DNA of 25,433 nt from a virus (Duplodnaviria; Caudoviricetes): IMG/VR virus record IMGVR_UViG_3300037786_000035, positions 1 through 25,433 of that record; one strand, given 5' to 3'. Below, one piece after another: positions 4,044-10,512 of the stretch (positions are counted from its first letter, which is position 1; each line of letters starts with the position of its first letter). A program made the position numbers and the translations under genes. The notes beneath the pieces were generated by a model. The model did not search any database, had not been told where the DNA came from, and saw only the letters and a program-made list of their open reading frames with translations.

Positions 4044-4047
4044 CGAA

Positions 4048-4101
4048 TGCGGATGAGAGGACTCGAACCTCCACGGGATTTTACTCCCACTTGGACCTGA
4101 A
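4048..4101 (-). tRNA. 3' half of tRNA-Leu(CAG), attP identity block (not a complete tRNA gene)
   Basis: Minus strand TTCAGGT CCAAG TGGGAGTAAAATCCCGT GGAGG TTCGAGT CCTCT CATCCGC A gives anticodon loop, long variable arm, T arm, acceptor 3' strand and discriminator A. Upstream bases do not pair with the anticodon stem. Confidence 0.92.
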
Positions 4102-4182: not shown

Positions 4183-7100
4183 AACCCCGACGGGATCAAG
4201 CCCTCCGAGTTCCTCGACGACGTCGTCCTGCCCGCCCTCTTCGCATGCCTGGACACCGCGTTTCCCGAGTTCGACTGGCGCAAACGCGGCAACAAATGGG
4301 AGGCCGGGGCCGGCTGCTCAGACGACATCACCACCCTCTACGGGCGGCACGACCGGATCGTCTGCAGGTCCGACAAGCCGTTCGGCTTCGCCGTCGCCGG
4401 CGGGGAGTCGTGCCGCTGGATCGAGCATATCTGCGGCGGTGCGAGCCCGACCGGCAAGGGCTTCGTCGATGCCGTCGTCCGGCTCGCCGAGATCGCGGGC
4501 GTCGATCCGTCGCCGATCAGCGACCGCACCGCGTCGCCCGAGCAGCGCAGACAATGGGCCGAGGAGCACGCCAAGCGCGTCGAGGCCGCACGCGTCAAAC
4601 GCGCCCAGGACGAGGCCGAGCAGGCGCGGCTCGACGAGGAGGCGATCGCCGCCTCACGCCGGCTGATCAAGCGCGCGATCGAGTACACGAACCAGGGCGG
4701 ACCGCAGGCGATGAAACGCACGCACCTGTACTTCAAACGCCGCGGCATCGCGATCGAGAAGCTCCCCGCCGGTCGGCTCCCCACCATGAGCATCCTCGCT
4801 GTCGACGACTTCGGGTTCACGAAGCCCAACGCACGCGGCGCCCAGGGGTTCCTTGCGCCCGTCACCGACGCCGACCGCATCCCGATCGGCTGCCAGCGCT
4901 ACTTCGTCGGCCCGCGCGGCGCCGCTGTCACTGTCCAGGTCGTCGGCGACAAGGGCGTCCGCAAGGCCGCGCTCGGCAAGCCGCGCGGCGGCGCCGTCCG
5001 CATGGGCGACGGCTTCCCCTCCGGCGTGCTCGTGCTCACCGAGGGTGTCGAGACCGGGCTCGCCGTGATGCAGGCCACAGGCTTCACCGTCTGGGCATGC
5101 CTGAGTGCCGAGCCGATGACGCAGGTCGGCTTCTCGCCGGCGGATCTCGAGTCGATCAAGGCCGTCGTCATCGCCGGCGACACCGACCGCAGCGACGCCG
5201 GGCGCAAGTACGCCGAGCTCGCGGCCGACCGCGTGCGCAGTGAGCTCAACATCCCCGCCGCCGTCGTGCTGCCGAGCGCCAAGGTCTGCCCGTCGCTCTT
5301 CGACTCCGAGCACCAGCCGCGCGACGCCAGGGGGAAAGAGGCCAAGAGCGTCGACTGGCTCGACACGCTCAACAGCGCCGGCGCCGACGCCGTCAGCGAC
5401 GCGATCGCGGCCGCACTCGAGCGGGCGACGCTGACGATCAGCAACCCCGCACCCGATGACAATGCGTCGCCGAAGAGCGCTCCGAAGAGCACCCGCGCGT
5501 CGGTCGGATCGGGCGGGTCGTCGAACAGTTCGGGCGGCACGGACGATGCGCACGAGCAGGGCAGCGGCGGCGAGGAGAAGCCGCCGAACGTCTACGACGC
5601 CGGGCTCGGCGGCTGGCCCGAGCCCAAGGGCCCCGTGATGCCCAAGAACCACCACGACCAGGCGCTGCTGTTTCTGAGCGACCGCTTTGGCGCCCCCGAG
5701 GGGCACCCGGAGGGCGAGCCGACGGCGCTCCGCCTGGTCACGCTCAGCGGGCGGCTCTACCGCTACGAGCGGGGCGTGTACTACGAGCTCGGCGAGCCGT
5801 CGGTGCTCAGAGCGGAGGTCCGCCGGTGGACGCGGCCGTTCTGGCAGAAGAAGTACACCCGGGAGTCGTCGAAGCGTCCGTACTACCTGCCGCACCAGGT
5901 CAGTCCCAACGAGGTCCGGTCTATCCTCGAGGCGGCCGCCGACGAGGCGATGGTGCACACGCCGCCCGACGACTACCGCACGCAGTTCTGGATGACCAAC
6001 AACGTCACCCCCGACGGGCACATCGACACCGACACGCCGTGCTGGGGCCGCCGCGTTGAGCACCCCGAGCGCGAGGACCTGCCCGACCCGGATCTCGTGC
6101 TCAGCGTGCGCAACGGGCTGGTCGATCTCGAGCACTGGAAGCGCCGCATCGAGCTGCGTGTGCTCGAGCACAGCCCGCGGTTCTTCTCGACGTCGCAGAT
6201 CGACCTGGACCTGCCCGTCGACGACGCGCTGGCCGCGCTCGAGGACCGGGATCTTGAATCGCTCCGCAAATACGCCGCGACGCTGTGCCCGCGGTGGATC
6301 GAGTTTCTCACCGAGACCTTCGCCGACGAGGACGACGACAACGCGGCGCCCGTCACGATCCGCGAGCTGCACAAGGTGATCGGCAACCTGCTGACGACCG
6401 ACATCTCGCACCAGCAGGGCAACATCACCTGGTTCCACGGCCCGCCCGGCATGGGCAAGAGCGTGATCAAGGAGGTCGTCGTCGCGCTGCTCGGCATGGG
6501 CAACGTCGTGAGCTCCAACATGCACAAGCTCGCGCAGGGCTTCCACTTCAACAGCTGGCTCGGCAAGCGGCTCGCCGTGTTCGCCGACCTCGACCAGGGC
6601 GGCAAGAGCGACAAGAAGGTCAACGTCGAGCTCTTCAAGATGATCGCCGGCGGCGACGCGATGTCGATCGACCGCAAGCACCGCGACGAGATCGCCAACT
6701 ACACGCTGCGCACGCGGATCCTCTGCCTCGTCAACCAGATGCCGCAGATGCCCGACGCGACCAACGCGCTGCGCCGCCGCTCGATCTGCTTCGACTTCAA
6801 GAACACGCCGGCGAGGAAGGACCCGCGGCTGCTCGAGGCGCTCACCGAGCCTCGCTCGCTCGCGGGGATCCTGCTGCTCGCGGTCTGCGGGCTGCGCGAC
6901 CTGGTCGAGGACGGCGGGTTCGTGCAGCCCGAGTGGAGCGCCGAGCCGCTCGAGCTGCTCGTCGCCCAGTCGAGCTCCTACGGCGAGTTCCTCGACGAGT
7001 GCATCGAGGTGACCAACGCCGCCGGGCTGAGCGACGACGGCACGGGCATGACCGGCGACCACACGCCCACCGAGGACCTGCACGCGGCGTACCTCGGCTA

Positions 7101-8544: not shown

Positions 8545-8936
8545 GCCCCGCAGTGCAACGCGGCGTGTATGCCGACAACTGGGACGAGCTCGCACGCGAG
8601 ACCAAGGACGCGGCGGGGTGGCGCTGCGTGCGTTGCGATCATGCGCACGACCCCTCGGCGGGCTACTGCCTCACCGTCCACCACTTCGACGGCGATAAGT
8701 GCAACAACCGGCCCTGGAACCTCATGGCCCTCTGCCAGCGCTGCCACCTGTCCGTCCAGGCACGCGTCGACCCCGACGTCCCGCTGCTCACCGAGCCGGC
8801 CGACTGGGCGCGGCCGTACATCGCCGGCTTCTACGAATCAGGCAACGGGATGCCCGGGCCGACGTATGATCTCGCGGCGTGGATCGAGAAGTACCAGGCG
8901 AGCGGGCGGGAGTGGCCGGATTGGGGGGTGCGATGA
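8541..8936 (+). CDS. HNH endonuclease
   Basis: CVRC...LTVHHFDGDKCNNRPWNLMALCQRCH. Confidence 0.88.
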   Translation: MSPAVQRGVYADNWDELARETKDAAGWRCVRCDHAHDPSAGYCLTVHHFDGDKCNNRPWNLMALCQRCHLSVQARVDPDVPLLTEPADWARPYIAGFYESGNGMPGPTYDLAAWIEKYQASGREWPDWGVR

Positions 8937-9373
8937 GCGAGCAACTAGCTGTAGACAACCGGCATCAGGCCAAGCGTGCGCTCCGTGCTGAGCTCGAGCA
9001 GAAGGCGGCGTTGATTCGTGAAGAGCTCAAGGTCCTCAACCAGAGAAGAGACGAGCTCAGCAACCAGCTCGAATCCATCCAGATTGTTCTCAAGGATGTG
9101 TTTCGACCCGTGACGACAAGGACGGCGTATGGAACCACTGTCAGCGAGCTGGATTATGCACTCGATCAACTTCCCGATGGCCGGTTCAGAGTAGCTTTGC
9201 TCTGCGAATTCGCGGAAAACATACAAGTAGATCGGAGGCGACTCTCAAAGGCGCTCTCAAAGAAATTACGAGAGGGTGACGGGAAGTACGTCACCAAGTA
9301 TTACGAGATCCGAGTGGAAGAACCGAGTGTTGGCCGCCGGGGCAGAATCTATTCGAAGCACAGCTACGGCTGA
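8933..9373 (+). CDS. Hypothetical protein (146 aa), N-terminal coiled coil and possible winged helix
   Basis: ATGA overlap at 8933, heptad-like N-terminus, visibly lower GC, followed by a terminator. Confidence 0.7.
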   Translation: MSEQLAVDNRHQAKRALRAELEQKAALIREELKVLNQRRDELSNQLESIQIVLKDVFRPVTTRTAYGTTVSELDYALDQLPDGRFRVALLCEFAENIQVDRRRLSKALSKKLREGDGKYVTKYYEIRVEEPSVGRRGRIYSKHSYG

Positions 9374-9397
9374 ATCAAGCATCCAATATCGATCACC

Positions 9398-9440
9398 AAA
9401 ACCGGGCGCCGGCAGCACACGCTGCTCGCGTCCGGTTTTT
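9398..9440 (+). terminator. Rho-independent terminator ending the replication/accessory operon
   Basis: Long stem around loop ACAC (two G-U pairs on the + strand, one mismatch) ending in TTTTT. Confidence 0.75.
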
Positions 9441-9464
9441 CGTGCGCTCAACTCATCGCCTCAT

Positions 9465-9499
9465 AAAAAAACCGCCCCTCCCGACGAGGAAGGGGCAGC
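9465..9499 (-). terminator. Rho-independent terminator (minus strand)
   Basis: GCTGCCCCTTCC-TCGTC-GGGAGGGGCGG then TTTTTTT; the wobble pairs work only on the minus strand. Confidence 0.85.
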
Positions 9500-9531
9500 A
9501 TTTCAAATCTATCCATCCCAAGGGAACAGAC
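9465..9531 (-). ncRNA. Predicted ~67-nt small RNA of unknown family
   Basis: Bounded by a sigma70-type promoter and an intrinsic terminator; no complete ORF; folds as two hairpins. Confidence 0.55.
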
Positions 9532-9537
9532 GGTCCC

Positions 9538-9565
9538 AAAATACCCTCCGCCGAGACGCTGTCAA
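9538..9565 (-). promoter_or_regulatory. Sigma70-type promoter
   Basis: Minus strand TTGACA (9565-9560), 16-nt spacer, TATTTT (9543-9538). Confidence 0.6.
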
Positions 9566-9620
9566 GCGGAATCTGCGGTCCTGGTGGGGGCGGTCGGCTT
9601 GCCCTGGCTGTGCGCTCGGC

Positions 9621-9851
9621 TCAGCGCCTCGGCCAGATCCTTGTCCAGCCGTGGTCGTCGTCGTGCGGCTTGGGGTCGTTCATCCCGGGGAAGTACAGCC
9701 CGCCACGCCGGGGCTTGCGGCCGAGTGTCCAGGGGCGACGCAGGAAGCGGCGGGCATGATCGGGCCAGAGCATCGCCCAGAGACCCAGCACGCCGAAGAG
9801 TGCGGGGAGAGCGATGCTTGCGAGCACGGTCCAGGGGATGTCGGTGAGCAT
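9621..9851 (-). CDS. Small single-pass membrane protein (76 aa), moron-like
   Basis: MLTDIPWTVLASIALPALFGVLGLWAMLWPDHARRFLRRPW...: one TM helix then a basic tail; extended -10 just upstream. Confidence 0.6.
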   Translation of the reverse strand: MLTDIPWTVLASIALPALFGVLGLWAMLWPDHARRFLRRPWTLGRKPRRGGLYFPGMNDPKPHDDDHGWTRIWPRR

Positions 9852-9999: not shown

Positions 10000-10120
10000 A
10001 GGCCCCCCCCCCCGGGCCTTGGGTCCTCCGGCTGGGGGCCGGTTTTCCGCAGGTTGTTCGCGTCGCATTTTGCGAGAATTTTTTGCACTATCCCTTTGAT
10101 TTGCAGCAACTTATGCAAAT
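10000..10120 (+). other. Candidate cos packaging region
   Basis: GGGTCCT at 10021-10027 equals lambda cosQ, preceded by a C11 run and followed by an AT-rich tract; non-coding; the terminase is GpA-type. Confidence 0.4.
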
Positions 10121-10512
10121 CCACCGCACTTTGGCACCCCGCCGGCTTTGATTGGGTGCCTGACCCCCTCCGCCGTCGGCTTTGAACCGGGGGCGGGGGT
10201 GCGAAGTTCTGGTTCATCGCGGCGCACCGCCCCTGGTGTTCTCGGAATACCTGAGAAGTTCTCAGCTGCTGCGCCGAGAAGCGCACCAAGTTTCCCTCCC
10301 AGCCCCGTCGGCGGATGGGCCCAGCGGCCGGGCGGGTGCGGGCGAGCGGAAAAAACCGGCCGGACCCCGCGCGCGATCGGCCCGGAGCGTGTACACTCAC
10401 GCCGCCAGGACACACGAACCGCGCCGCCTCGCGCCCGGGGTCGCCCCTCGCCAGAGGCCCGAGCGATTGACGACGACGCCGAATCCGCACGCGACGCGTG
10501 CAGGATGTTTGT

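Follow-up and report, generated by a model that had tools for sequence, protein, structure and literature searches.

The window analysed here, a stretch of 25,433 nucleotides, is a provirus record (25.4 kb, 34% complete, GC content of about 68%) with genes for integrase, primase, HNH nuclease, a sigma-like protein and DNA methylase, along with a terminase, portal, protease and capsid of lambda type. The small-RNA element under study sits in a non-coding gap between two open reading frames (ORFs): a singleton 146-aa ORF on the plus strand (8933–9373), which lies in a lower-GC stretch and is convergent with the predicted RNA, and a 76-aa ORF with a hydrophobic, helical N-terminus on the minus strand (9851–9621), upstream of the element. 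The site of the 146-aa ORF, between the HNH gene and the RNA, is a cargo hotspot, and the related phage X5 carries 209 other bases in place of this ORF. When PADLOC was run on ten neighbour proteins it returned generic kinase and HTH matches and a weak coiled-coil match for the 146-aa ORF, while the 76-aa ORF had no match in Pfam, PHROG or PADLOC; a TG-n-TACGCT motif 6 nt before the ATG of the latter suggests a leaderless message. Some 500 bases further along is what we take to be a cos-like stretch. Positions 10040–10216 are non-coding, are retained with 23 differences in the contigs X4 and X6, fall within a longer variant piece in X5 and are possibly the packaging site. Directly after the integrase gene, at about 4045–4100 on the minus strand, lies a tRNA-like 3′ half, presumably tRNA-Leu-like, which is the likely attachment core.

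On the minus strand of the gap, the sequence-only reading had seen a promoter of the form TTGACA-N16-TATTTT, and both boxes are present, the −35 box at 9565–9560 and the −10 box at 9543–9538, with a spacer of 16 nt and 10 of 12 positions agreeing with consensus. A discriminator, GGGAC(C/G), follows at 9537–9532, and the trinucleotide GTC at the predicted start, 9531, begins 7 nt past the −10 box. From there a segment of 32 nt (9531–9500) runs up to an intrinsic terminator (9499–9465), also as that reading had quoted them. The 32-nt segment consists of a 5′ hairpin (9531–9511; nine pairs, four of them G-U, and a loop of 3 nt), for which an alternative register is less stable by about 2 kcal/mol, and an A/U-rich linker of 11 nt, AGAUUUGAAAU (9510–9500), which is the CRISPR-handle-like part and whose GAAA can pair with the U tail. 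The terminator has a stem of 12 pairs (9499–9471), a 5-nt loop and a U7 tract (9471–9465), giving a predicted transcript of 67 nt (9531 to 9465). A terminator-like hairpin on the plus strand (9398–9440), 3′ of the 146-aa ORF and outside the common cassette, faces the RNA; it had likewise been pointed out beforehand and was found (z −5.3 for 9374–9450), and is unlisted by the terminator scan.

The promoter-like site was the only one between positions 7000 and 12000 of the window, but as shuffled sequences average 0.7 such sites, the promoter by itself does not exceed chance. The whole predicted RNA folds at −32.6 kcal/mol (z −5.0), mainly owing to the terminator, and the 32-mer alone, at −7.9 kcal/mol (z −1.2), is not above chance either, as 27 of 200 shuffles fold equally well. 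What raises the putative unit above chance is its conservation, not the statistics of promoter or hairpin.

A cassette of 111 bp recurs in a second provirus, G001 (41.6 kb, 93% complete; cassette locus L026), at 86% identity (E 1.5e-29; blastn of G001 against the window). The other DNA that blastn finds in common between the two records is a 235-bp stretch of the HNH region (76%) and two short weak matches; their terminase and portal families are phrog_15/21 in the window versus phrog_979, 10250/1216 in G001, and the virion proteins differ too. The cassette is single-copy in each phage, and a covariance model built from both copies found no paralog in either. Between the two copies, six substitutions and one gap fall within 23 columns of the −35 and spacer region, and four substitutions at the terminator top. 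Over the interval from the −10 box, itself identical, to the lower part of the terminator stem, the copies differ by a single substitution immediately ahead of the start and by a C that is added in G001. The 32-mer is free of substitutions, as are nucleotides 1–41 of the RNA, in which the inserted C enlarges the hairpin loop to 4 nt. In G001 the −35 box reads TTGCAA, and this weaker −35 goes together with an extended −10 (TG two bases before the box) that X5 and X10 also have and that the window copy is without. Both stems are fully paired in G001, where the terminator has one two-sided and one one-sided change; a compensatory pair change from C-G to A-U is seen in this copy and one from C-G to U-A in X5 and X10. 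Because only two deep lineages are known, this covariation carries no statistical weight (239/500 for the two sequences).

Comparison with pond/aquatic metagenome contigs, which covered 8 of 12 listed runs (X11 gave nothing and X3 had a gap over the cassette), added close variants of both copies. A G001-type cassette is found in X4, X6 and X9 and an unchanged window-type cassette in X8. X5 and X10 hold a variant in which both promoter boxes are kept and the final linker base (9500) is deleted; among the substitutions listed for them (10 of 11 and 10 of 12 differences), none falls in 9501–9531. Their similarity to the window stops upstream, near the 76-aa ORF, at 9630 in X5 and 9599 in X10, and the genes that precede the cassette in G001 encode an HTH/sigma-like protein and a Ser/Thr kinase. 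As the flanking genes vary, the cassette would not be a cis element of one gene, and a conserved unit amid swapped neighbours and different backbones argues for a mobile unit that is independent of those neighbours. With the 32-mer unsubstituted, the terminator changed in a compensatory manner and the flanking genes swapped, we consider it very likely that the cassette is a real, mobile, stand-alone RNA gene, with transcription and the start at 9531 as its predicted features. The earlier proposal of a self-contained small RNA gene is thereby borne out to the extent that promoter boxes, RNA body and terminator are all kept in the second phage and in the strain variants. It might be objected that there is no independent RNA, and that the terminator of upstream cargo genes, lying beside a promoter-like site, has been spread by recombination. 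A same-strand gene does lie just upstream in both phages, and no RNA run is found among the listed holders of the cassette; yet the −10 box, the discriminator and the 32-mer are kept although the promoter spacer drifts, an extended −10 accompanies the weaker −35 in the G001 copy, and a bare terminator would not need the 32-mer. We therefore judge this objection to be quite improbable.

Searches for more distant relatives were largely blank. The sequence-only reading had proposed Rfam and covariance searches in related phages. In Rfam, the whole window gave no match at the gathering cut-off, the sub-threshold matches being five in 9300–9700 of the window and one elsewhere in the G001 locus; the best, to RF02278, scored 16.3 bits (E 0.83) where the cut-off is 50, and was mostly driven by the terminator. 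The G001 copy was recovered by pattern, and in 65 other loci the best matches of the covariance model were terminators already selected by pattern. The element received no tRNA call. An exact 27-mer had no match in IMG/VR, and four looser patterns retrieved G001 as the only homolog (1 of 12, 1 of 1, 1 of 8 and 1 of 9 loci). Annotated phages and plasmids had no cassette, with short chance matches or none, and among terminase/portal relatives the fragments L001 and L119 are without it, neither of them reaching the syntenic site. A metagenome scan with the 3′ 18-mer found neither arrays nor homologs in 38 loci, a weak blank because the scan also missed JGI contigs expected to hold the cassette. 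Three viral contigs (L094, L095 and L097) carry a conserved non-coding stretch that ends in TTGAAA before a G-C hairpin and is unrelated to the cassette. In the literature, mostly open access, no description of this RNA or of planctomycete phage RNAs or repeats was found.

The identity of the host bears on several of the functional readings. We infer that G001 infects a Phycisphaerales planctomycete: its kinase is also recorded on a 2.69-Mb contig, the only named relative, among 120 listed, to cover the N-terminal extension of this kinase belongs to a Phycisphaerales bacterium (30% identity over 94% cover), and a planctomycete plasmid has the gene order sigma–kinase as in G001. Since the cassette and the samples are in common, the window phage probably has a Phycisphaerales host as well. 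Two further markers were consulted for the window phage: the tRNA-Leu-like stretch had no match in IMG/VR and generic tRNA matches in plasmids, and the integrase had matches of 26–29% only. The HTH/sigma-like and Ser/Thr kinase genes of G001 occupy 1627–3965 of L026, and the matches of this kinase to PADLOC kinase models, PD-T4-6 among them, are probably generic.

According to the sequence-only reading, the 32-mer resembles a solitary CRISPR repeat, loosely of type I-C. The part of this claim that stands concerns its ends and geometry. GTC is found at the predicted start, exactly 32 nt run up to the terminator, and the hairpin ends at nt 21 with 11 nt remaining as a 3′ overhang, which is the geometry of I-C repeats as defined in the available text of PMC8524198. 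The tail ends in TTGAAAT, which is I-C-like, GAAA precedes the stem in none of 16 other terminator-like hairpins of the fetched loci, and only 1 of 2000 full shuffles scores as well when four of the fetched I-C repeats are the reference. In an alternative fold the remaining tail is 7–8 nt long, as for Cas6, and genuine archaeal arrays with a TTTGAAAG end exist. Moreover, the unit is solitary and intergenic, with a strong predicted promoter upstream and no cas genes, as solitary repeat units are according to the accessible parts of PMC10651486, and it is common to phages of probably one host. These features would suit an RNA anti-CRISPR, that is, a Racr-like decoy whose 32-mer would be a repeat in degenerate form, or else one belonging to a host family not yet sampled, and which, if abundant, would soak up Cas5d/Cas6 or handle-binding subunits.

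The part of the claim that did not hold up concerns the middle of the 32-mer and the bases that an I-C enzyme would recognize. With the ends kept, 278 of 2000 shuffles reach the score, placing the middle at chance level, and the ungapped identity to five fetched I-C repeats is 14–17 of 32. Solitary repeat units are defined, in the portions of PMC10651486 at hand, by an identity of at least 90% to a known repeat, in published searches with 17,823 repeats; in our small library of 15 fetched repeats the best match covered 26 of 37 columns, in antisense, and the best I-C match 17 of 32. The stem, at −7.9 kcal/mol and with four G-U pairs, is weaker than those of the five I-C repeats (−12.9 to −15.1 kcal/mol), and its nine pairs, loop of 3–4 nt and absent overhang differ from the seven pairs, 5-nt loop and 2-nt 5′ overhang of I-C stems. 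Cas5d recognizes the base of the stem together with U22-G23-G24 and cleaves 3′ of G21, one such enzyme tolerating G21U, as far as the accessible sections of PMC3973291 and PMC8524198 describe it. Around the cleavage site between nt 21 and 22, the RNA has U21 followed by A22-G23-A24 where I-C repeats have G21 followed by U22-G23-G/A24 (all five that were fetched have G21-U22-G23), so that G21 and U22 are changed, as is A25. The predicted RNA retains the I-C positions that Cas5d does not read and alters those that it does.

Nor has a matching repeat been found. In term searches of the supplement to PMC10651486, the published table of solitary repeat units contains GGATTGAAA 347 times and ATTTGAAAT not once, and GGATAGATT and GTCTGTTCC never occur in the searchable supplements. 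A scan of 185,579 species genomes for two copies of the 3′ 12-mer returned 22 loci, of which nine were array-like on manual reading; these come from three archaeal genomes, the cyanobacterium Rhizonema and one clostridium, and none is planctomycete. Taken with the absence of arrays from the 38 metagenome loci, the scans yielded no array with the same 3′ 12-mer in a plausible host, weak blanks in that near records may be missing from what the scans return. Scattered matches to the 3′ 21-mer, with no more than three mismatches and never in array form, turned up in 43 of the 351 genomes from the phylum to which G005, a deltaproteobacterial record, belongs. Cas5 had no match in either phage record, the window being 34% complete. 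The Racr RNAs RacrIF1 and RacrIC1 (Camara-Wilpert et al. 2023, PMC10651486), as portrayed in the consulted part of that work, resemble the cassette in being intergenic, solitary and promoter-driven, and I-C-like length, start, tail length and TTGAAA end are in common. The cassette is unlike them in its identity far under 90%, its G-U-rich stem and its changed Cas5d-read bases, and also in that nothing in the predicted transcript precedes the hairpin to serve a Cas7 filament, upstream RNA being the inhibitory part of RacrIF1; no acr neighbour was identified and no matching host repeat found. By the published criterion the RNA is not a Racr member, yet it may work like one; overall we regard the decoy as a close rival of the explanation favoured below, though less likely than not.

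Three other relations to a host CRISPR system deserve mention. The two best alignments among the 15 fetched repeats are in pairing orientation, which could mean that the 3′ half of the RNA pairs as an anti-repeat with the 5′ end of host pre-crRNA repeats and blocks or misdirects their processing. One is to the Rhizonema array (26 matches in 37 columns, with cas3 nearby), whose direction was inferred from a degenerate end copy and the flank, and the other, with a perfect run of 16 nt, to the Clostridiales array, whose direction we take from type I-B conventions; the predicted duplexes have −27.5 and −25.4 kcal/mol, respectively. However, both arrays had been chosen by the scan for a common 12-mer, and as good a match over the rest arises in 125 and 159 of 5000 shuffles (about 3% each), which is not significant because several arrays were looked at. 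Moreover, neither Rhizonema nor a clostridium is a plausible host for a phage of 68% GC, and the clostridial repeat is found as an array in 1 of 61 genomes of its order. Pairing of this kind is in our estimation very unlikely. The Rhizonema array itself (L023, about 5977–6830) comprises 12 repeats between a WCX-domain gene and cas3.

A second relation is that of a Cracr-type guide, in which the repeat-like part would be cut and the bases that follow would steer the host Cascade to a promoter. In what is available of Liu et al. (bioRxiv 10.1101/2024.10.29.618823), Cracr RNAs such as CracrVA1 are phage-encoded and, as here, combine a single repeat-like unit with an intrinsic terminator. The terminator stem of the cassette also resembles the stem in two of the fetched I-C repeats, although G-C stems of this kind are generic. 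In contrast to the guides of 21–24 nt given in that source, the terminator stem here begins immediately after the 32-mer, and hence there is no spacer; the bases that do follow are locked in the 12-pair stem and vary in a compensatory way, and no target was found. A guide function is, on this evidence, very improbable indeed. The third relation is a crRNA mimic or anti-repeat RNA that has dispensed with a spacer: the handle-like 11-mer would be fused directly to a terminator serving at the same time as a repeat-like stem, and the RNA would jam planctomycete crRNA processing or assembly. We consider this an improbable arrangement; if true, it would need neither upstream RNA nor a guide, a layout unlike those of both Racr and Cracr.

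Outside CRISPR, the sequence-only reading had offered two alternatives, a decoy for CsrA and an RNA directed against ribosome-binding sites, and neither drew support from the two phages. CsrA sponges display many GGA motifs in loops and space them more widely. The two GGA motifs contained in GGGAUGGAU are, however, both paired in the main fold, their starts lie only 4 nt apart, and a csrA gene is present in 0 of 2 phages, which makes titration of CsrA the least credible of the functions that we weighed. Pairing with the phages' own start regions, hand-picked for 29 window genes and 27 G001 genes, was matched by 173 of 200 and 15 of 200 shuffles, respectively, and is thus not above chance. A type I toxin-antitoxin arrangement with the 76-aa or the 146-aa ORF was considered and rejected: neither mRNA has above-background complementarity to the RNA, the transcripts do not overlap, and the ORFs are not kept with the cassette.

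We favour, tentatively and with somewhat less than even confidence, the explanation that the 67-nt RNA acts in trans on a common host by base-pairing with host RNAs. This preference stems from its size, layout and invariance and from the failure of those CRISPR tests that were feasible rather than from a found target. The cassette has what is expected of a trans-acting prophage small RNA, namely a predicted promoter and terminator of its own and a conserved non-coding body. In the mechanism that we envisage, a strong promoter of housekeeping type would fire at the predicted start, 9531, and the RNA would be made in the lysogen. The G-U-rich 5′ hairpin may be weak enough to open, in which case its U/C-rich 5′ arm or the A/U-rich 11-nt linker could act as a seed, while the terminator would protect the 3′ end. 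A host RNA is the likely target, given that the sequence is kept by two dissimilar phages in whose own DNA no common target was found; no long complementary stretch is common to both phage records.

Known small RNAs offer some precedent for base-pairing as the function. RF02278 is a Betaproteobacteria family of toxic, trans-acting small RNAs of 57–92 nt (available text of PMC4603805), with which the cassette RNA has size class, a U/C-rich 5′ end and a strong terminator in common, although at 16.3 bits, far below the cut-off, it is not a member. The closest working model, by analogy, is provided by the prophage anti-sRNAs AgvB and AsxR of EHEC, which are encoded at lambdoid cargo sites (Tree et al. 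2014, PMC4104026). As presented in the accessible portion of that study, they measure 51–60 nt, compared with the predicted 67 nt, and the cassette is like them in its own terminator, its convergent layout and its location, a variable cargo site in a temperate phage of lambda-like type; AgvB and AsxR and the cassette RNA are all presumed to act on a host RNA. The likeness drawn here is one of size and layout, and the host phylum probably differs. The 5′ ends of AgvB and AsxR vary and their 3′ parts are conserved, whereas the 5′ 41 nt of the cassette RNA are fixed; a further difference is that Hfq binding and a target have been shown for AgvB and AsxR.

The persistence of a tiny RNA gene, nearly unchanged, in two temperate phages that are dissimilar suggests a host function that would repay manipulation, probably a planctomycete one; the phages of planctomycetes have barely been studied. 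At 110 bases, the cassette is small, self-contained and easily cloned. Should the RNA pair with a host RNA, it would represent a new small-RNA family of a known kind. Should it instead block CRISPR, it would imply that RNA anti-CRISPRs can fall far under the identity cut-offs of current searches, and that many of them may therefore have been missed.
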